64,000 nucleotides of DNA from a virus. Positions within the stretch are counted from its first letter, which is position 1, and each line of letters opens with the position of its first letter. This document shows positions 26,663-59,225 of this stretch, piece after piece. Position numbers and translations under genes: made by a program. The stretch lies in the IMG/VR virus record IMGVR_UViG_3300025011_000027, positions 1-64,000 of that record; one strand, given 5' to 3'. The notes below the pieces were generated by a model, which searched no databases, was not told where the DNA came from, and was given only the letters and a program-made list of their open reading frames with translations.

Positions 26663-26937
26663 TAAATCAATCCCTCACTTTCTAATAATATGTTTTCTAA
26701 ATCGACGATCTTTTGCTGATCAGGTGTTAACGGAATAATAATATCCTCGGTAACAAGCGTTCCGTTTGCAACATCTACGCTCAACGCTCTTTTCCCGTTT
26801 AGTTCTCCAAATGCAGTTTCAATATAGGGTAAACCAATGGGTTTTTCATGCGGCAAAACATTACCTTCGGCATCGGGGAAAACTGCCCATATTTTACCGT
26901 TATCATCATAGATTATTAAACTTCCTACTTGTGCCAT
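26662..26937 (-). CDS. Tail fibre assembly/chaperone-like protein
   Basis: Position after the fibre genes; C-terminal QQKIVDLEN.LL coiled coil. Confidence 0.6.
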   Translation of the reverse strand: MAQVGSLIIYDDNGKIWAVFPDAEGNVLPHEKPIGLPYIETAFGELNGKRALSVDVANGTLVTEDIIIPLTPDQQKIVDLENILLESEGLI

Positions 26938-26948
26938 TCTTAGCCCTC

Positions 26949-27458
26949 CTATTCATCTGCGTACCATGTAAAAGATACTGTGTAACTATAATTAGCGAGT
27001 ATTGGGGCATTAAACCTAAATCCATTAGGAATGATACTAATTGAAGTATCGTTTGTATCATAGAATCCGACAAAACCGTCTGAACTCGTATAGCTACCAT
27101 CAGAGGATATAGATGCAGATACCGCACCCTTTGTGGCATACGCAGGGTTTTTTATTGCACTTCCGCTAGTCATAGTTATAAATTCAGATGCGGTAGCCCC
27201 ATTTCCTATATTACTACTCCATCCAAGCATAGTAACCTTACTCGGTGTAAAGTCCAGGTTGTTAATGGTTACCGCAGTATTACCAGCAATAGATGATGTT
27301 ATACCAGTAGCCCATTTTTTCTTCGTGCTTGTCCCTGTTACCTTTACCCCCTTTACATAAGCAGTTACTCCACTCTGAATATCTGCCGCTGTAGCTGTCG
27401 CATCACCTGTGTTAGTGCCACCAGCATCCTTTTTAGGTTTTACAAAACCCTCAAACAT
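26949..27458 (-). CDS. Tail fibre/receptor-binding protein
   Basis: DATATAADI.SG.TAYV.G.KVTGT fibre repeat; KKWATG; LDFTPS. Confidence 0.75.
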   Translation of the reverse strand: MFEGFVKPKKDAGGTNTGDATATAADIQSGVTAYVKGVKVTGTSTKKKWATGITSSIAGNTAVTINNLDFTPSKVTMLGWSSNIGNGATASEFITMTSGSAIKNPAYATKGAVSASISSDGSYTSSDGFVGFYDTNDTSISIIPNGFRFNAPILANYSYTVSFTWYADE

Positions 27459-42782: not shown

Positions 42783-44231
42783 TTAGTACCCAGATTTGCC
42801 GATGTTTACAACCATAAACTGTCGCTCAGGAGCTTTTACGGCAAGAGTGTGCAGATACAACAGACCGAAAGGAATAGTGGTATTTTGGATGGCCAGAGGC
42901 AATTTTAGCAGCGGAGCCATTTGAGCCATTACCATATTCATTGGATTCTTGTTCATAAAGCAAGCAACATCTGTTCCAGGCATAATGCTATTGTCATCTA
43001 CGAACAGAGCATTTGCAGTTGCAGTACGAGCAACATCTCCGATCCATTGAGCGTCAGAACCTGTTGAGATAAGACCACGATACACACGATAACCCCAAGC
43101 ACCCGTTACATTAGGAATAGTGACTGTAACAACTTGACCGGCCGCGGTAACTGTTCCTGCGGATACAGTAGTTCCGAGAGATTCACCCTGAGCATTAAAA
43201 GCAGATACGGTGTAGTAATTCGTTGCAGCATCGGCAGTCTTGAAGTTAGACACTTCAGTACCGGTTACTGAACGAGCAGCGGCAGTTGGTCCAGAAGGAG
43301 CTGCACAAGCACCACTATCCGCAGAAGTTAAAGGCGCTCTTCCACCATCAAACGGATCCAAGAAAACGTCTTGAGTGAAAGGCATAAATCCGATTTGAGT
43401 TCTGTATCCTTCGATAGGAGTACCAGCTGCAAATCCACCGTCACGAGCTGTCAAGTTCATATTACGCTCAGACTCGGTCTTCATGAGCTGAAGAGTGGCA
43501 AGCGTGTCAGGAGACAAGAAAGATCCAATGTCCCGAGTGGTCGTTACGAAAGCTTTAGCCATCTTAGCAGCAATTCCACTGATAACATCAAATGTCATTG
43601 GCTGACCATGCATGTCGATAACGTTTAAAGGAGCGTTCGCTTTCAGGTTACGATAAAGGCCATCATAGAAAATATCCGATCCGCCATTGTCTTTGATCGT
43701 GCTATTTCCCCAAACTAGAGCATGCTCAACGGATCCGAGCAATTGCATGGTACCATCATATTCTTCTTCGTCAACTGGGTTGGTGAACATTCCTCCGAGT
43801 GCTCCAGCTAAGTTAGAAATGACAGTTGTACCACGTTGTACCCCGAAGAACCGAACAGGCTCAGTGTTGCGGCTCCAAGAACCGAGTCCAACCGGCCCGA
43901 TCGCGCCCTCAGCAAAAGCATTAGCTCCGCGAGACGTACCGTACTGATTACGACGATTCCATTGGTAAATCGGGTTGATGCTAGGCACACGCTCAATAAA
44001 ACGTTGCTTAACGAGTTGTTCTTCACTGAAAAGTACAGAGGTCATAATGCTGTCCAAGTTTTGGAGCAATAAGTTTGTACCATCAGCCATCCCTGTAATA
44101 CTACCGGTTGCAAGTGCTTTGACAAGAGGAGCGGAAAGTTGATTCACAAACTGATCTACCCCGACCCAGCCGGCTCCAAGAGCGTTTTTAGCTAATTGGT
44201 TAAAGGATTTTACTAAGAACTTTTCAGCCAT
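42783..44231 (-). CDS. Major capsid protein (Herelleviridae/SPO1-like, with FN3-like insertion)
   Basis: KAL.TG...L..QNLD, FAEG, E.AL.WG, YDGL, VIDM.G; follows scaffold. Confidence 0.9.
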   Translation of the reverse strand: MAEKFLVKSFNQLAKNALGAGWVGVDQFVNQLSAPLVKALATGSITGMADGTNLLLQNLDSIMTSVLFSEEQLVKQRFIERVPSINPIYQWNRRNQYGTSRGANAFAEGAIGPVGLGSWSRNTEPVRFFGVQRGTTVISNLAGALGGMFTNPVDEEEYDGTMQLLGSVEHALVWGNSTIKDNGGSDIFYDGLYRNLKANAPLNVIDMHGQPMTFDVISGIAAKMAKAFVTTTRDIGSFLSPDTLATLQLMKTESERNMNLTARDGGFAAGTPIEGYRTQIGFMPFTQDVFLDPFDGGRAPLTSADSGACAAPSGPTAAARSVTGTEVSNFKTADAATNYYTVSAFNAQGESLGTTVSAGTVTAAGQVVTVTIPNVTGAWGYRVYRGLISTGSDAQWIGDVARTATANALFVDDNSIMPGTDVACFMNKNPMNMVMAQMAPLLKLPLAIQNTTIPFGLLYLHTLAVKAPERQFMVVNIGKSGY

Positions 44232-45142: not shown

Positions 45143-45907
45143 TTATTTAAGATAGCCCGCAAATTGCAGACGCTTGACCAACCTATAAGCTTCGTTTTCT
45201 TTTACTCCCTTACACTTAACAAGGTGGAAGTAGGCACTCTCTGATCCTTTTCTAAATCGTCCCTTTTCGTCGTAACAATTGTGGTCACATTTACCCCAAA
45301 GAACATCTTCGATTGGAAATCCAGTTAGGGCTTTACTCGCTTCTTCAGTAACATGACCATCATCCAAGTTTTGATTGAGAAGAGGAACTCCGTTACCTGT
45401 AGTTAGTGACTTAGCTAAAAACTCAGCGAACGTATCAGTGTTAGCGGGCTTAGGAGTAAGTGCTACATCGTCCACCCTCGTCTTAGTGAGTCGATTCGCC
45501 TCCGTCTCTAGTATCGCCCCCTCTACTGAAAACCCGTGATTCCTTTCGGGGTCGTCTTTTTCGGCTTGCAGTAGGTCCCAAGCTGCTCTTCCTGGCTCAC
45601 TATCATATAGCTCAACCAAGTGATAAAAAGCAGGACCTCTTATGCCTTTCTTGAGAGTACTTCCATCAGAGACAATTTTAGCTTCTAATGGTTTACCCAG
45701 AACGTATTGCGGTCCTTTTAGATGATCGTAATTCAAATGACCTTTTGTCAAATAAGAACTAAATTCCATTCCAGGAACTACTAATTCTTCGCCATGTTTG
45801 TCTTTAGTTTCAGTACTCGCGACACCCCTAAGCAATCTCTTACGTTCGCCCTTTATTAGCTCTTCGTCACGTTCACAGATAACAAAAAAGCTAAAATCTG
45901 CCGGCAT
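45143..45907 (-). CDS. Prohead maturation protease
   Basis: GVASTE..D..GE, NYDH, GFSVEG, VALT..PAN..T. Confidence 0.88.
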   Translation of the reverse strand: MPADFSFFVICERDEELIKGERKRLLRGVASTETKDKHGEELVVPGMEFSSYLTKGHLNYDHLKGPQYVLGKPLEAKIVSDGSTLKKGIRGPAFYHLVELYDSEPGRAAWDLLQAEKDDPERNHGFSVEGAILETEANRLTKTRVDDVALTPKPANTDTFAEFLAKSLTTGNGVPLLNQNLDDGHVTEEASKALTGFPIEDVLWGKCDHNCYDEKGRFRKGSESAYFHLVKCKGVKENEAYRLVKRLQFAGYLK

Positions 45908-49763: not shown

Positions 49764-52115
49764 TTAATGTTCTAGATTATAGTGGATTGTTTCCAGTGTG
49801 TCCGTTTCAGCATCTTCCAATTGCTTCTTAGAATACTCGTTATCAGGATGGGCTAAAATTTTAGTAACAAGGTTGCTATGAGGATCAAAACCTTCATTAT
49901 TAACCGACGATGGTCCTAACTTCTTAGCATAGTTTATAATTTCCATAATAGGCTTACTATTAAGGCTCTCTGCACTGACTTTGTTACCAGGATGAGTTAA
50001 AACTTTTTCAGCTAGCTTGCTTTTTAAAATAAAACCTACATGCTCCTCAGACGTGTTAGCATAATTGGACCACTCTCCTGCCCATTTACCAAGTTGAGAT
50101 AAAGATGCAGTTTCAAGAGTTTGATTATCATATTTATACGGATGATCTTTCTTTATCTTGTCAATAAAACCTTGAGTAAGTTCATCCTTCATCTGTTCAA
50201 GTATAGTTGAGCTTCCTTTAGTAGTTTTTGGAGAGGAGATTACCGATTCTACTGTCTTTGTCTTCTGACTCGTAGTGACAGTAATTTTAGGTTGTTTAGT
50301 ACCTTTAGACTTATTAGGCACATATTCAGCATATAAACTATCTGCGGCTTCTTTCATGCTGCTCATACCCATACTGTAATACTTATCATAAGCTTTACTA
50401 CCATATTCCTTACCAGATAACAATTCTGCCAATTTACGCTTTGTATCAGTATGTGAGGACTTATTATTGTCGTAATCCTTCATAATTGATTTGTAAGCAG
50501 CTTGCTTTACTTTCCACTTCTCTTTGTCAGCTTTTTGTTCTGGAGTTAGTTTCGGAGCTTTCTTTTCAGGTAAGTTCTCCACTTCGTCCAAGTTTACTTC
50601 AGCATACTTTGTTTTCTGCTTTACGGTGAAATGATGTTTACCATCTTTCTTTTTGTATCCTACAATGGTGTATCGTGCTTCCATTGACATTAGAACTTCG
50701 TCCTCACCAGAATGAGAGCTTAAATGTTTAATACTAGCTGCGTATTTACTTCCACCTTCTAAAGTAAATATACAACTATTTCCACCACTTCCGTGACCTG
50801 AAAAACCATTTGCAGTACTCTTGCTACTTGACCAACTACTGGTTCCACGCATATCAATAATAAGATTTGATCCTGTTGACTTTATGAGCTTATCAAGTAA
50901 TTCGTCGTTTACTGATATACCTCTATACAGAGGAGCAGTACCTGCCCATTTAGGCATTACTTTTAAAGCTTTTTCAATGTCAACACTTCTCTTATAATAT
51001 TCTTGGTATGTGTAATTATTAGGATCCATTTTCTTAGTTTGAACTGATCTTATTCCAGAAGAACCAGAACCTGAGAATGAAGTAATAGCACTTGCATAAT
51101 GGTCAGCCGCTTCATCTGAAACACCTAGACCCTTAAAATAGTCAATCTTTTCAGATTTACTTACTTCATAACCTTTATGACCTTCTTTTCCATAACGATG
51201 TGTAACGCCGACTCTGCCTCGTGTCTCTTGACTACCTCCAACCTCTCCAGGTCTTCCAGCGTGATTGAAGTCTCCTGAACCGGGGCCACCCTTTCTTAAT
51301 ACAAGCAACATGTCAGCACCCCTTTTACTTAATATTCTCCCTAGTCCTAGAAATATTGATTTACTAAATTTGGGTTTTATCGACTTAACTTCTTTCAGAT
51401 AAATCATAGTATGAGTTGCCGCAGTTCCTGAGGAAGTTGTCCCTGCAACATCGTCTATCCTAGAAATTTTGAATCTTGACCCAGCGGACATTAAGACTTC
51501 TTCTTCCTCTTTAAATTCACTGATAGACCTAATGCTTGCTCCATGCATGCTTCCCTTTTCTAAAATAAGCATGACCGATCCATGATGACCATATGCTTTT
51601 GGACCTTTACTGCCAAAACTTAGTGCAACCTTTTCTGAGCTTGACCAACTACTTACTCCCAACATGTCGATAGAATCTCCGCTTTTATGTGAGTCTCTTA
51701 GCGACTGAAGATTACTTGGTTCAATTCGTATTCCTCGATAGATGGCTCCTGACTTCCATTTTGGAAGCTTCTTAATGAGTGCTTCCAAGTTCTTAGCATG
51801 ATTAACAAGTCGATCTTCTTCCTCTTTATTGTCTCCCTTATAAGTTCCACTACCAACTTGTCTAATTTCAGTATAGTCAATACCAGTAAAGTCAGTTATT
51901 GCCTTTGCGTATGCTTTAGCATGCTGCTCATCAACTCCAGTTTCTTCCATTATATAAGCAGCTTTTTTAGATAGTCCATTGTATGTTGAAGGATGATGCT
52001 CACTGGTTCTTCGACTTGTTCCACCTTTTCCTTCACTACCACCCACTTGACCAGGTCTCCCTGAATGTCCAAAATCCCCTGATCCTACGCTACCCTTACT
52101 GAGTACTATTTGCAT
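49764..52115 (-). CDS. Tandem ADP-ribosyltransferase protein (two R-S-E ART domains, each with a GSGxFxHxGRPGxVGGS leader; C-terminal repeats)
   Basis: IYRGI/SSWSSS/EEEEVL and LYRGI/SSWSSS/GEDEVL; internal SD plus ATG at 51311. Confidence 0.85.
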   Translation of the reverse strand: MQIVLSKGSVGSGDFGHSGRPGQVGGSEGKGGTSRRTSEHHPSTYNGLSKKAAYIMEETGVDEQHAKAYAKAITDFTGIDYTEIRQVGSGTYKGDNKEEEDRLVNHAKNLEALIKKLPKWKSGAIYRGIRIEPSNLQSLRDSHKSGDSIDMLGVSSWSSSEKVALSFGSKGPKAYGHHGSVMLILEKGSMHGASIRSISEFKEEEEVLMSAGSRFKISRIDDVAGTTSSGTAATHTMIYLKEVKSIKPKFSKSIFLGLGRILSKRGADMLLVLRKGGPGSGDFNHAGRPGEVGGSQETRGRVGVTHRYGKEGHKGYEVSKSEKIDYFKGLGVSDEAADHYASAITSFSGSGSSGIRSVQTKKMDPNNYTYQEYYKRSVDIEKALKVMPKWAGTAPLYRGISVNDELLDKLIKSTGSNLIIDMRGTSSWSSSKSTANGFSGHGSGGNSCIFTLEGGSKYAASIKHLSSHSGEDEVLMSMEARYTIVGYKKKDGKHHFTVKQKTKYAEVNLDEVENLPEKKAPKLTPEQKADKEKWKVKQAAYKSIMKDYDNNKSSHTDTKRKLAELLSGKEYGSKAYDKYYSMGMSSMKEAADSLYAEYVPNKSKGTKQPKITVTTSQKTKTVESVISSPKTTKGSSTILEQMKDELTQGFIDKIKKDHPYKYDNQTLETASLSQLGKWAGEWSNYANTSEEHVGFILKSKLAEKVLTHPGNKVSAESLNSKPIMEIINYAKKLGPSSVNNEGFDPHSNLVTKILAHPDNEYSKKQLEDAETDTLETIHYNLEH

Positions 52116-52221
52116 GCTGTCACTTCCTCCTAATAGCTAAAAGAATGCGCTTATGATCTTTCTCATCAGCTTGGATTTCTTTAAGCTTATCCGCCGATTC
52201 TTCGTCCCCTGCTTCTTCAAA

Positions 52222-53559
52222 CTATTTGATTCTTTCACCATAGTCCTTAATAGCTTTTTCTTCTCCTTTAAGGTCATTGGTTAGAGAGATTCTTTTAGCT
52301 AATAATTCACTTAATCCGATCATGGAATATTCACCTGACTTCTTAAAGGAGGTAACTACGAAACGAGCTTTACCTGATATAAGTACCTCTTCCTGTTCAT
52401 CAAATGCGCTAAAGTCTTTAATGCTTGCTCCTAACCTTGTACCATTTTTAAGAACAAATATAACCTTATTAGCATAATTTCCTTCACTAAACTTCTTAGC
52501 GACATCTAACCCGCTGCTCCAGCTACTAACACCTAACATACTGAAATCTTCTCCAGTATATAGACCATTTAAGTATTTTTTAAGAATTGCATTACTGAAA
52601 GATACTCCCCTGTAAAGTGTGCCTGTCTTACCCCACTTAGGAAGTATTTCGATAGATCTTTCCAAGTCACTACCCATCAATGCATACTTACGTTCTTCCT
52701 CTTTACTATTGAAGTTCTCTGAATTACCCATCTGAGCTGCGCGAATATCAGAGACGCTAGGTCCTGTAAAAAGAAGGATTGTCTCGACCAGCCGCTTAGC
52801 GTACTCAATCTCTACCCCTCTTCTATAAAAGACCCTATACTTTTCATCAAGCTCTCCAAGTTCTCTATGACCTGAGGTACTTGAATTCTTCTTAAGTTGA
52901 TACGCTACCCACTTATCCACTGTCTCTTGCCATATACGATGCGGAGCAAGCTCACCATCCCACTTCTTGTCAACGTCACTGAATACGTGCATCCTATTGT
53001 TCTTATATTTCCCTTCCTCTATCATGCCATCCGAAACTGCAATTAAACGTGGTTTATCGCTCTTACTATCTACCATATACCAGTAACAATTCCAGTCCAT
53101 TCCAATAGACCAAATTTGTGCCCATACTTCTGAACTATGAAGGGCGCCAACAACAAAGTCAGGACCGTTTTCATATGAATCATTTGGTTTATGAGCTTCA
53201 ATAATTAGTTTTTTCACGTATAGACCTTTATCACTATTCTCTCTTTTCCATAAAGCTCTGTATCTACGCTCAGCGGCAATTACTCTTGTGCTATTCAGTC
53301 CCCCGACAACACATGGAACATGCGTATGTCCAGATTCTATAGCTGCAAGTAGTTTGTGGTGTCCATCGTGAAGGTCATAGTCATACCCAACAACTAAAGC
53401 TGGAGTAGGTTTACCTTCTTTAAAGTCTCGAACATATTGAGCAACCTTATCACGATTGATGCTCTTAGTAGTCTGATAAGGAGTATTAATTCTATTCGTT
53501 GGTATGTATATTGGGTTAGGTGCAGTGGTCTTATATGCAAACCTATTAGCATTGCCCAT
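52222..53559 (-). CDS. ParB/Srx-like domain plus ADP-ribosyltransferase; ferritin-like tail interrupted by TAG
   Basis: PALVV...DGHHKL.AA...G...VP; LYRGV/SSWSS/EQEEVL; frame continues past TAG to TGA at 52120. Confidence 0.82.
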   Translation of the reverse strand: MGNANRFAYKTTAPNPIYIPTNRINTPYQTTKSINRDKVAQYVRDFKEGKPTPALVVGYDYDLHDGHHKLLAAIESGHTHVPCVVGGLNSTRVIAAERRYRALWKRENSDKGLYVKKLIIEAHKPNDSYENGPDFVVGALHSSEVWAQIWSIGMDWNCYWYMVDSKSDKPRLIAVSDGMIEEGKYKNNRMHVFSDVDKKWDGELAPHRIWQETVDKWVAYQLKKNSSTSGHRELGELDEKYRVFYRRGVEIEYAKRLVETILLFTGPSVSDIRAAQMGNSENFNSKEEERKYALMGSDLERSIEILPKWGKTGTLYRGVSFSNAILKKYLNGLYTGEDFSMLGVSSWSSGLDVAKKFSEGNYANKVIFVLKNGTRLGASIKDFSAFDEQEEVLISGKARFVVTSFKKSGEYSMIGLSELLAKRISLTNDLKGEEKAIKDYGERIK

Positions 53560-56187: not shown

Positions 56188-56217
56188 ATATATAACAAAA
56201 GAAGCGTATTTTTTAAG
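56188..56217 (-). promoter_or_regulatory. Phage promoter (copy 7)
   Basis: CTTAAAAA-N15-TATATAT. Confidence 0.75.
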
Positions 56218-57403
56218 TGACTGTTCCATATTCTCTCATATACTGTATGGGGTAACAATGACAGTGCGGGTGGGTGGAAGCGTTTGGTAACCATCCTCCT
56301 TCTTTGCCGATCTTCGAAGCAGTTAGTCCTACATTCATCCCGCCTGTTCTTGCGACATTATGAAGAATCTCACTAAGCTTGAATATCTTTGGTGTTCCAT
56401 CTGGATTTAGGTATAGCTTCTTACACGATGCACACGCGATGGGCTGAACGTGATAATATACTTCAATCTCGTCAGCGTCTCCCCCACCTTCGTGTTGTAT
56501 GCTTGCTAGTTTGCCCAAGTTAGTGGAATACCTGATTTCAGTTTGAGCTATTCTATCCCAATCCCTACTTATGTCTTCTTGCTTAAATCGTGACCTTAAC
56601 TCTGAACTAAGCTCTTGCCATCCTTTGACGCTTCTATCTGACTCTAGGATACTCATTTCTTCTCTGCTTAGTCCTTCTTCATTGTATTTTGTGATCTTAA
56701 GGTCTCCAGAGAAATAGGACTGAATAATAAGGTTTAAGTTCTTCTTTTCATTGGCTAATATAATGTCCTCTGCTTTGTCGGCAAGCTTTCTTCCAAACCC
56801 TGTTACAAACCTTGCCGCGTTCTGCTTTGCTTGCATTAGTATTAGCTCATCTACGCGGTTCAGAGGTATCTTAGCGACTAGTTTAACCATGTCCGCATAC
56901 GTATCTCCGTTGGCTAGTACAAACGATAGTCTACCAGCTACATACGACTGATTAATCCAGGTCTCCAAGTCCTGCTCAGGAGGTACTATGCCGTATTTAT
57001 TCCACTGACGTTGCAGCGAACTTGGTACTTTATAGCCTAATCCTATCGCGGATCTGAAATGAGATTCGATTAATAATCTAAGTTCTGCAACTTGTGCTTC
57101 AGTCAATGTAGGAGGTACTCCAGACCGTTTACTGAGAATGTTCTTTTTAAACGTGCTTTTCCCTTTAAACCACTTCTCTATGTTCTGAACGAGTGTAGTC
57201 ATTAGAGAACGTGTCGTTATATTGAGCTTCTTCTCTATCTGTCTGAGATACCTCTCTGGTATTTCTTCTCCTACATGGTTATGCTCTTTCTTCGATAGAA
57301 GCTCTACCACTTTACTAGTTAAGTGTTCATTCGATATATAGGAGGAGAGTGCTTTTGCAAGTTCTTCATCTGTGATGTTCTCACGAGTTACCCTTACTTG
57401 CAT
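56213..57403 (-). CDS. MuF (SPP1 gp7-like) minor head protein
   Basis: RDWDRIAQTE...N.G, AC.SC..LY, HPHCHC; follows portal. Confidence 0.88.
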   Translation of the reverse strand: MQVRVTRENITDEELAKALSSYISNEHLTSKVVELLSKKEHNHVGEEIPERYLRQIEKKLNITTRSLMTTLVQNIEKWFKGKSTFKKNILSKRSGVPPTLTEAQVAELRLLIESHFRSAIGLGYKVPSSLQRQWNKYGIVPPEQDLETWINQSYVAGRLSFVLANGDTYADMVKLVAKIPLNRVDELILMQAKQNAARFVTGFGRKLADKAEDIILANEKKNLNLIIQSYFSGDLKITKYNEEGLSREEMSILESDRSVKGWQELSSELRSRFKQEDISRDWDRIAQTEIRYSTNLGKLASIQHEGGGDADEIEVYYHVQPIACASCKKLYLNPDGTPKIFKLSEILHNVARTGGMNVGLTASKIGKEGGWLPNASTHPHCHCYPIQYMREYGTVT

Positions 57404-57554: not shown

Positions 57555-59225
57555 TCATTCATCGTCTAGTATCTCAAACAGTAGTATCTTAGCACCTTCA
57601 TTCTTCTTCAGTGCGTTATCACTTGGTTTCTTTTCTGGAGTTGCAGCTTTCTTTTTGTCTTGAGCAGTAGGCTTAGAGTCTTTCCCCTCTTTGCCTACCG
57701 CCTTCGACGCACCATCTTTTCCTTGTCCCTTAGAAGACTTAGGATCACCGCCTCCCGCGTCTTGCTCGGCCGTAGCCTGTTCTTGAGCTAGTGACGCTGA
57801 CATTGCTGACATATACACGGTGCTATCTGGAACGTCTCCGAACTCTAGATCTCCTTCTAATCCCATGGAGCGTCGAGATTCGTTAAACGTCATACCAGCT
57901 TTAAGTTGTTTACTAATCAATTCTATTCGTCGATCTTCGTCGGCAAGGTCTGTATCATATATCATAACTAAATCGTCATAACGAGGTTTAATGACTACTT
58001 TAGTTAACCAACTAGCATGTCCAAATATAATGCTCTCTAATCCCTCTTGCTTAGCGTCAGAAAGGATTTCATCTTCATTAGCTCCATTACCTATGCTCAT
58101 CCCACCGCTGGATCCTTTGTCAATTGTAAAGTTAACTATTGACGGGTGCGCTCTGAATGCTGCGGTCTTTAACTGAATAATAATCCTCAAGAATTCAGCA
58201 AATTGAACGTCTTTTGGAAGCTCTCTGATCTTAATTAACTCAGCTTTGAAATTCTCATCCGCAGGGATAACTGGCACACGTTGATAGTCTCCAGAACCAC
58301 TTTGGTCAAGTACTTGTCTTTGAAATGCTCCAAGTCCGATAGGGTCAACGTCACCATATAGAAATAGCATACTTTCAGGACTGTCTTGATTGAATAGTCC
58401 ATCATTATATGCCCAAGCATTCAACCACGTTTGTGTAGCCATAATAGACTGCTCTAGTGCCGACCCTGCTCCATATGCCCATCGGTCAATCTCGACACTT
58501 GGGTTGGTAATGTTTACGCTCATTTCTTCAGCGGTCCAGCATGCTACAGGTAAAGCGTCAATCACTTGAACATATGCGGCGTTAGTAACATCCAATCCAT
58601 AGGTCTTAAATATTCCTTCATACGATGCGCTTCTGGTGGTTTTGTTCTTCTTAGCAAAGTCCATCAGAACTTCGATAACAGGACGAATCGTAGTACCGTC
58701 CACAAGATGATAAGAGCAAGGTGCTCCAGTACGATCTTTAGTAATGACCATAGCCTTTCGATCATATGTAAGCTCTTGGTCTGTGCATACCGCGGCGAAG
58801 TCGATAAACCCATTTGGATGAATCATAGGATTGACGTTCTCTATGATCTTCTCAACCTCTTTACAACGGCGTATAACGTCCTCTGTGGGGCTATAGTTAG
58901 GGTCGGCGTGATTCTCGTTCACCACTCTATATCCGACCTGCTTACCAGGCACTACGACCTTCTTAGAGAGGTATTTAACTTGTGCTACTCTTGCCATAAT
59001 GATGATCTTATCTATTAGCGATTTCTCGCGTGATAATCTTAGTAAGTCGAACTGAATAGAGCTATTTGGTTTGTGGTATCCTGTTCCCGCCATGTCTCGT
59101 GCTTGTGAATACTGAGAGAAGAACTTACCTCTAGCTGCTTGCTTTTGAGCTTCTTCTTCCATTTTCTTGGCGAGCGTTACCCGCTCCGGAACGATTAGCC
59201 CATTGTATTGTGCCCACTCAGCCAT
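57555..59225 (-). CDS. Portal protein
   Basis: D.LTYD, VDGTTI, YVQVI, YG.S.LE, YN...F.Q, D.QF, TFNE.R. Confidence 0.9.
   Translation of the reverse strand: MAEWAQYNGLIVPERVTLAKKMEEEAQKQAARGKFFSQYSQARDMAGTGYHKPNSSIQFDLLRLSREKSLIDKIIIMARVAQVKYLSKKVVVPGKQVGYRVVNENHADPNYSPTEDVIRRCKEVEKIIENVNPMIHPNGFIDFAAVCTDQELTYDRKAMVITKDRTGAPCSYHLVDGTTIRPVIEVLMDFAKKNKTTRSASYEGIFKTYGLDVTNAAYVQVIDALPVACWTAEEMSVNITNPSVEIDRWAYGAGSALEQSIMATQTWLNAWAYNDGLFNQDSPESMLFLYGDVDPIGLGAFQRQVLDQSGSGDYQRVPVIPADENFKAELIKIRELPKDVQFAEFLRIIIQLKTAAFRAHPSIVNFTIDKGSSGGMSIGNGANEDEILSDAKQEGLESIIFGHASWLTKVVIKPRYDDLVMIYDTDLADEDRRIELISKQLKAGMTFNESRRSMGLEGDLEFGDVPDSTVYMSAMSASLAQEQATAEQDAGGGDPKSSKGQGKDGASKAVGKEGKDSKPTAQDKKKAATPEKKPSDNALKKNEGAKILLFEILDDE

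Follow-up and report, generated by a model that had tools for sequence, protein, structure and literature searches.

A conserved 20-residue tag behind a phage-specific leader precedes ADP-ribosyltransferase units in a viral head module and points to a portable module on candidate phage cargo proteins

Introduction

Phages inject proteins together with their DNA and, to our knowledge, the way in which this cargo is chosen, processed and released is understood only in T4, P1, N4 and a few giant phages. Here, we analyzed positions 1 to 64,000 (hereafter the window) of the IMG/VR virus record IMGVR_UViG_3300025011_000027, a single 91,966-bp genome. The stretch is present in groundwater metagenome runs of one study, and no RNA datasets holding it were listed. 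Our subject is a minus-strand open reading frame (ORF) of 783 amino acids, in which two ADP-ribosyltransferase (ART) units each stand behind a short leader peptide and a glycine-rich tag of 20 residues. An earlier note on this DNA had raised the idea of a portable, cleavable cargo module, and the sequence comparisons below largely bear this idea out and extend it. What is new here is that, as judged from sequence, the residue immediately before the Gly-Gly that opens the tag (the pre-GG residue) is uniform within a phage, different between phages, and associated with the protease family.

Results and discussion

The 783-residue ORF carries two leader-tag-ART units

The leader-tag pattern, M-x-[IL]-V-L-x-K followed by G[GS]xGSGDFxHxGRPGxVGGS, is found at residues 1–27 and 269–295 (Table 1), as the earlier note had described in placing a repeated leader peptide ahead of each ART unit. 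These two tag copies are the only ones in the window, and in both a Met stands exactly seven residues ahead of the tag. Copy 1 carries a Ser at position 2, a residue seen there in 2% of the family copies. Nineteen of the first 29 residues are identical between the two copies, 10 of these 19 being specified by different codons, and the nucleotide identity is 64%. Aligned from M1 and M269 across 222 residues, the two units share 38% identity (E = 4e-27); hence the leader and the tag are better conserved than the ART domain behind them. The ORF thus appears to be a tandem duplicate of a whole unit, that is, of a start, a 7-residue leader, a 20-residue tag, and an ART domain.

Both PF03496 and PF01129 of Pfam scored above their cut-offs in the ORF, and the R-S-E motifs of ARTs (YRG, SSWSS, and EEEE/EDE) are present in both units. 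Among solved structures, the nearest relative is Vis, an arginine ART (E = 7.5e-5). By paralogy with unit 1, ART domain 2 extends over approximately residues 330–485. The C-terminal 240 residues (residues 545–783, window 49767–50483) have no family match; this region, which no tag precedes, includes a linker rich in Lys and, around residues 700 and 750, the internal repeat K[VI]L[TA]HP[GD]N….

Table 1. Features of the 783-residue ORF and of the surrounding head module (positions are those of the window; ↓ marks a putative cleavage site).
Feature	Position	Strand	Basis or remark
ORF of 783 aa: two tandem leader-tag-ART units and a C-terminal region of ~240 aa	49764..52115	-	Pfam, PHROGs, paralogy
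Leader 1, MQIVLSK, residues 1–7; proposed propeptide	52095..52115	-	K↓G, putative protease site
Tag copy 1, GSVGSGDFGHSGRPGQVGGS, residues 8–27	52035..52094	-	matches the family consensus
ART domain 1, residues 66–228	51432..51920	-	PF03496 (ADPrib_exo_Tox), E = 1.9e-9; phrog_832, RNA polymerase ADP-ribosylase
Shine-Dalgarno-like AAGGGGTG, 5 nt upstream of the internal ATG	51317..51324	-	-10.2 kcal/mol
Leader 2, MLLVLRK, residues 269–275; proposed inter-unit cleavage site and possible internal start	51291..51311	-	
Tag copy 2, GGPGSGDFNHAGRPGEVGGS, residues 276–295	51231..51290	-	
Core of ART domain 2, residues 426–503	50607..50840	-	Pfam match
Portal protein, upstream boundary of the cargo block	57555..59225	-	several portal PHROGs
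MuF-like gene, separate ORF, C-terminal H-x-x-C-x-C motif	56213-57403	-	
Head maturation protease, proposed to cut after K7 and K275	45143..45907	-	phrog_1028, E = 2.5e-26; putative link to the leaders
Major capsid protein, N-terminus MAEKFLVK↓S resembling the cargo leaders	42783..44231	-	phrog_752

The tag recurs in thousands of proteins and is conserved as a peptide

A 42-residue query matched 47 metagenome proteins with one to five copies of the tag each, at N-termini and between unrelated domains, and a degenerate DNA pattern matched at least 115 IMG/VR loci. In bacterial genomes, the same pattern gave ~27 true sites among the first 120 loci listed, mostly in metagenome-assembled genomes and Clostridia genomes; the true matches lie in Clostridia, Dehalococcoidia, Omnitrophota, Mycoplasmatales, and others. 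We then built a profile from 101 tag copies. Searched against 1.84 billion cluster representatives, it matched 6,458 clusters at E ≤ 1e-3 (1,016 at ≤ 1e-10 and 196 at ≤ 1e-30), with up to 9–10 copies per protein.

The 139 best new proteins of this search, with 633 tags, served as an independent profile-based set. Their consensus is GGxGSGxxGHxGRPGxxGGS, in which G1, S5, G6, H10, G12, G15, G18, G19, and S20 are conserved at ~100%, R13 at 93%, and P14 at 87%. Position 8 is occupied by His or an aromatic residue, 49% of the copies have Glu at position 16, and a Gly stands at every third position from G6 to G18. Tag positions that the DNA pattern had left free, the GG before and the S after, are near invariant as well. 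A chance or low-complexity repeat was rejected as an explanation. Copies within one locus share 70% DNA identity, and 61% of their identical residues are encoded by different codons, so selection acts on the peptide. The earlier note had argued for protein-level selection from the two copies in the ORF, and the same signature extends to the family. Gene conversion among copies was ruled out, as synonymous sites are near saturation. An AT-hook was likewise rejected; there was no Pfam match even at E ≤ 1, and the flanks (H-A-G and G-E-V) are not basic.

The domains attached to the tag are very different from one another: ART, ART-PolyVal, MuF, ParB, 2H phosphoesterase, GNAT, HD, PolyA_pol, and zeta toxin, and further CCA-adding enzyme, ChaB, DUF2958, and LPD1. 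The portability that the earlier note had expected of the leader and the GRPG peptide is thus seen across thousands of proteins. Neither Pfam nor NCBIfam has a model for the tag. Twelve variant strings of it occur in no paper of the searched literature, and a search for 'GRPG' together with 'phage' gave nothing relevant. In one metagenome protein of 1,522 residues (P0001), a CCA-adding tRNA nucleotidyltransferase and an HD domain lie between tags, an arrangement that suggests an injected tRNA-repair cargo.

The residue before the tag follows the phage

Next, we compared the residues preceding the tag within and between sources. The pre-GG residue is uniform within a source and varies between sources, where it may be K, R, D, N, L/A, E, F, or H. 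For the IMG/VR loci and the first protein set together, it was identical in 87.6% of 355 within-source pairs versus 20% expected; for the independent set, the figures were 84.3% of 1,246 pairs versus 25%. Within-locus pairs that share the residue do so by different codons in 57% of cases, and the uniformity is therefore selected rather than inherited as DNA.

For comparisons between genomes we used the window genome and 18 further whole or large contigs assembled from fetched regions, with 1–16 tags each. Uniformity extends genome-wide here, with K ×8 in G003, N ×11 in G012, L ×14 in G018, R ×16 in G009, and E ×5 in G041. The residues further upstream (P4–P2) also show class-specific patterns, among them L-[RK]-[AT]-[LA], L-[VI]-E-R, and [ILM]-x-E. 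Leaders of 7–22 residues, alike within each genome, were found in 13 of the 19 genomes. Other phages with K before the tag (K-class) have short M-x-hydrophobic-x-K leaders of 7–10 residues, as in G003 (MKLIIVRK, MKLKIVTK, and MATISIRFK). The leaders of G041 are 20 residues long, read …IKDISSEVLTxLFE, and are conserved within that phage. One gene of G041 (L241, 6249–7571) carries the leader of its phage (…FLIKDISSEIL…) without a tag, which means that leader and tag are separable. The N-terminus of the G041 portal protein (…PLIKKISSIIS…) is also leader-like. In G003 (L244–L247), the tagged gene at 26721–27401 begins MKIRLKIRLKIRLK↓GG, with the site IRLK three times in tandem before the tag; we liken this to the redundant cleavage sites of giant-phage propeptides. 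Collectively, the pre-GG residue looks like the P1 residue of a phage-specific protease cleavage site.

The internal start codon is strong in the window and is not a feature of the family

The second leader opens with an ATG (position 51311) for which the earlier note had remarked a Shine-Dalgarno (SD) sequence of its own. This SD pairs with the anti-SD as strongly as that of the gene's own start (-10.2 kcal/mol) and ranks in the top 0.6% (rank 0.006) of the 473 internal in-frame ATGs in the genome. Unit 2 could then be translated separately from this codon, either after a recent gene fusion or from a functional internal start, and no proteolysis would be needed. The collinearity of the two paralogous units from M1 and M269, the strength of the internal SD, and the equal spacing from Met to tag in both copies all agree with separate translation. 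Across the 19 genomes, however, only 13 of the 51 internal tags have an ATG within 20 codons, and a strong SD was seen in the window alone. In the larger set of loci, a Met upstream of internal tags is not enriched (38% versus ~32% expected). A search for split relatives of the ORF found none, only a fragment at a contig end. Separate translation also leaves the phage-specific pre-GG residue unexplained, and we regard it as unlikely to account for the arrangement.

The earlier note had offered two units fused by loss of a stop codon, or translation from two starts. Two duplicate units and an unusually strong SD are borne out, while an internal start as a property of the family does not; nor is a special stop loss called for, since multi-unit ORFs are the norm. 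On the simplest reading, the SD and ATG are a relic of a tandem gene pair that merged into one ORF. The internal start may be used, and its use would be compatible with cleavage.

Tags after glutamate are associated with a T4-type protease family

T4-type prohead proteases cut after a Glu that follows a short motif (PMC9026906). Before the first search for Peptidase_S77, we set the prediction that tags after [IL]-x-E go with this family. The first search found S77 in one of 40 contigs, namely G041, whose tags follow ILFE, FLLE, ALFE, MLFE, and DIFE. A second search, after a targeted scan for tags preceded by Glu (Glu-class), brought in G072 and G079, where the sites read [IL]-[LF]-E, and a third found none in 27 further non-Glu contigs. 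In total, S77 was present in 3 of 20 Glu-class contigs versus 0 of 62 others (Fisher one-sided p ~0.013). Among contigs of at least 50 kb, it was present in 3 of 7 versus 0 of 32 (p ~0.004). S78 was found in two K-class contigs only, and ClpP in one D-class contig only; these matches, like those of phrog_1028 described below, agree with a protease site before the tag but are too scarce to carry weight. A search for loci related to two Glu-class proteins gave no matches.

A scan of other head proteins for leader-like sites with a position-specific scoring matrix was suggestive only: the G041 capsid protein has EVLLE↓N at residue 38, and a tagless LFE↓ site was also seen. Complex prediction for the window protease with ORF residues 255–300 returned a score of 0.00, which is no answer and does not bear on binding either way. 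The support for cleavage behind the hydrophobic strand is indirect and comes from the covariation of the pre-GG residue with the protease family.

Tagged genes lie in head modules of phages with dissimilar heads

On the minus strand of the window, the genes run in the order portal, MuF-like gene, small ORFs, kinase-like gene, a gene encoding ParB and ART domains (ParB-ART), and the ART-ART gene, followed by four structural genes, the head maturation protease, a scaffold-like gene, and the major capsid protein. This portal-to-capsid order places the tagged gene within the head module. In G041, the terminase and portal genes are followed by five tagged genes, an S77 protease gene, and a capsid protein gene. 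In G009, the terminase and portal genes precede a ~30-kb array of tagged genes with ART, GNAT, ChaB, DUF2958, LPD1, and 2H domains; its 11 tagged genes hold 16 strict tag copies, all after Arg. In the window, G009, and G041 alike, the tagged genes are flanked by those for portal and capsid and lie in head modules, as the idea of the earlier note required. In a prophage of Oscillibacter ruminantium GH1 (L158, 2171–4102), the tag is fused behind the portal itself: behind …PTAD, the 643-residue portal protein carries a single tag and then, after a poly-Gly linker, ends in a further domain of ~150 residues. The G009 array (IMGVR_UViG_3300037339_000150, L236–L238) occupies ~7.9–37.5 kb of a 55.8-kb contig, an unusually large share for putative cargo.

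Within proteins, no tag stands at a C-terminus. The stretch behind the last tag has a median length of 259 residues and a 5th percentile of 130; the median spacing between tags is 221 residues. The first tag lies at most 40 residues from the start in 81 of 139 proteins, always with at least five residues before the GG, and a stretch rich in G, S, and P directly follows the tag. By these distances, the tag is always ahead of a unit of domain size. Some tagged proteins start with a MuF domain (P0008).

The head proteins of the window have no phmmer-detectable relative in the 18 other genomes, and in an all-against-all BLAST of the 19 genomes the tagged proteins are the only family common to all. 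Neither comparison brought out a candidate receptor for the tag. The tag is thus kept in phages whose head proteins show no detectable sequence similarity.

These observations bear on whether the GRPG tag is itself a capsid-targeting signal that binds the inner surface of the capsid, the scaffold, the portal, or MuF. A position N-terminal to cargo units with a flexible linker would suit a tethered ligand. The tag also lies in head modules, 25 of 40 tag-bearing contigs encode MuF, and no tag was seen on plasmids with one of these cargo domains. Known addresses are, however, phage-specific, as is that of T4 (PMC9026906), whereas the tag is the same across dissimilar heads and, at the level of BLAST, no other family common to the 19 genomes is there to bind it. 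In G041, the better candidate address would be the long leader, which is phage-specific and is found without the tag as well. We therefore consider a capsid address in the tag itself doubtful. The proposal of the earlier note that leader and GRPG peptide form a portable capsid-targeting signal keeps its portability; the GRPG peptide, however, is unlikely to be the capsid address, for it is identical across unrelated heads.

A proposed two-part module for capsid-borne enzymes

We favor, with a probability of about 0.55, a two-part module that marks capsid-borne cargo enzymes, the modules of phage polyvalent proteins, and combines a phage-specific propeptide and protease site with a universal tag. 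The first part would be a short, strand-like leader whose last residues form the site cut by the head-maturation protease of the same phage, in a role like that of the 7–10-residue propeptides of T4 Alt and the T4 internal proteins. The second would be the invariant 20-residue tag with its flexible G/S/P linker, kept at the new N-terminus of each released enzyme. For the window, we envisage that the 783-residue protein enters the procapsid as one chain, and that the protease encoded at 45143–45907 cuts after K7 and K275 to give two ADP-ribosyltransferases, each with the tag first. In this proposal, cleavage, packaging, and the fate of the tag are all inferred from sequence comparison.

Several points weigh against the two-part module. 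Most tag-bearing contigs, and nearly all of a set of 54 viral ones, have no Pfam-detectable S77, S78, or ClpP, and the protease link accordingly depends on few positives. S78 and ClpP were found by Pfam in none of 16 near-complete tag-bearing contigs. One complete contig, G074, has L-x-E sites but no match to S77. Outside the window, phrog_1028 gave one weak match in 40 contigs, in another K-class contig, so support for the K-class is thin. The maturation proteases of most tagged phages would have to be either very divergent or of another type. The uniform pre-GG residue could instead be the mark of another lineage-specific partner, or the cut could fall after the GG rather than before it. Within the window, the kinase and the ParB-ART of the same block carry no tag. 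By tblastn, the tag was absent from 50,697 cultured-phage records and 72,556 plasmids, and no cultured tag-bearing phage was found. Finally, the two-part module does not explain why 20 residues on the prime side of the cut stay invariant.

What might the tag do? The leader tracks the phage and the tag does not, so the tag is unlikely to be read by a diverging protease or by phage-specific head proteins. Predicted alone with AlphaFold2 from a 101-row alignment, it gave a mean predicted local distance difference test (pLDDT) score of 55.6 and no secondary structure, that is, predicted disorder. Our best guess is that the tag would be a handle that keeps enzymes in the head or lets them out, by binding something shared by all tailed phages, be it DNA, the portal channel, or further copies of the tag, and not a capsid address. 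The Gly at every third position would allow a polyglycine-II-like self-packing of copies. A more far-reaching version, which we hold only tentatively, is that the tag (G-N-F-G-H-A-G-R-P-G-E-V-G) may be a disordered 'universal connector' that works independently of any partner, by bundling in a polyglycine-II- or collagen-like manner or by riding along DNA or the portal channel, while the leader is retuned in each phage.

The tag might instead act after injection, binding a conserved host component (ribosome, RNA polymerase, nucleoid, or chaperone) as a hub, or protecting N-termini. A peptide so strongly conserved in phages of very different hosts should need a universal partner, and many of the cargo domains act on RNA, transcription, or translation. 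Nevertheless, a comparable motif was seen in no host protein family. A cargo domain that lies between tags has stand-alone homologues without the tag, on a plasmid and in another phage, which suggests that the tag is tied to the virion route. We judge a host partner to be improbable.

Still less credible, in our view, is a tag that acts on its own chain, by autoproteolysis at an invariant Gly-Ser bond or by a ribosome-directed effect on the nascent chain. It would make use of the invariant His and Arg and of the two Gly-Ser pairs, and the ribosome, as a universal partner, would explain the conservation. Yet the tag alone is predicted to be unstructured, and it is not joined to any known self-cleaving fold. 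Tags also stand at N-termini with 5–10 residues ahead, a place without units to be split. Both the phage-specific pre-GG residue and the link between S77 and Glu point to an external protease.

Comparison with known systems

The closest known systems are the propeptide or capsid targeting sequence (CTS) cargo of T4 and the polyvalent proteins described by Aravind and colleagues. In T4, packed and injected enzymes, an ART among them, bear a propeptide of 7–10 residues that the head protease removes at a short consensus site and that is portable to foreign proteins. From Alt, an ART, gp21 removes a propeptide made up of the first seven residues, and for IPIII a stretch of 10 residues is enough to target the head (PMC9026906). 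The candidate module shares with this system (IPI–III and Alt, with gp21) a short N-terminal propeptide before the cargo, of seven residues in the window as in Alt. Tagged phages that encode a T4-type protease, moreover, have [IL]-x-E, the site of T4-type proteases, right before the tag. It differs in that T4 cargo has no conserved peptide after the cut, whereas here an invariant 20-mer stands behind every putative site. Also unlike T4, the module repeats inside long multi-unit proteins and would be matched to several protease specificities (K/R, D, N, L/A, E, F, and H).

Polyvalent proteins (Iyer, Burroughs, Anand, de Souza, and Aravind, 2017; PMC5512222) have the same repertoire of ART, ART-PolyVal, MuF, ParB, 2H phosphoesterase, GNAT, RadC, and LPD domains, with many effector domains per polypeptide, and the two ART domains in one chain of our ORF conform to this multi-effector layout. 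Delivery with the DNA was predicted for them, and processing by zincin-like metallopeptidase domains was proposed (PMC5512222). The 783-residue ORF has no peptidase domain by Pfam, PHROGs, or NCBIfam, and so lacks a zincin-like domain for self-processing. The units described here are set apart from those of that paper by a conserved tag after a phage-specific site, and its text does not contain 'GRPG', linker, glycine, spacer, or related words.

The MuF polymorphic toxins of temperate phages (Jamet et al., 2017; PMC5576092) likewise place variable effectors on a head-associated anchor, as do P0008 with its MuF and L158 with its portal. By contrast, the window protein has no match to MuF (PF04233), a domain for which Pfam found none in the whole genome, and PMC5576092 mentions no motif, linker, or cleavage. 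Encapsulin cargo-loading peptides resemble the tag in being short, Gly-containing peptides on a flexible linker that serve diverse enzymes and an HK97-fold shell. As a rule, however, an encapsulin peptide occurs once, at the C-terminus, and binds the shell protein of its own system, whereas the tag is N-terminal to its units, repeated, and invariant across unrelated shells. An encapsulin-type peptide (of the GSLxIGSLK type) was rejected for the tag, which has a different sequence, is never C-terminal, and repeats internally. For an invariant tag that follows a retunable protease site, the searched literature describes no counterpart.

The tag lets candidate cargo enzymes for anti-defense or takeover be recognized directly in metagenomes, and marks domain boundaries in giant polyvalent proteins. 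From the residue ahead of it, the specificity of unknown head proteases could be read. Should the tag be sufficient for loading or ejection, it would be usable for protein delivery by phages. If the universal connector were real, any tagged enzyme could be held in, and expelled from, unrelated phage heads, making it a natural plug-and-play tag for loading and injection. Our results raise the question of which constant partner keeps 20 residues invariant while virion proteins diverge. The host strain of the L158 prophage is cultured and offers a possible experimental handle.

Other features of the head module

The head maturation protease of the window has no sequence match in Pfam or the PDB. 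The scaffold-like protein begins MRAILNK↓R. In the first 12 residues, the strand-plus-K pattern occurs in 4 of 130 ORFs versus ~1.7 expected, a weak enrichment that includes the capsid N-terminus. The earlier note had pointed out that the kinase of the same block ends in a similar strand, and the DIKVVLKK is indeed there. Its significance does not hold up, as the simple pattern occurs at ~0.0016 per residue in this proteome and also matches a conserved ART beta-strand (MLILEK and VIFVLK).

In the region 52120–52296 of the window (minus strand), the ParB-ART ORF upstream ends at a TAG, after which the next 33 in-frame codons extend to a TGA that lies 4 nt before the ATG at 52115. These 33 codons continue a helix pair, E-x-x-A-I-x-x-Y ... 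D-E-x-x-H. The TAG could be a nonsense mutation, or a site of readthrough or recoding.

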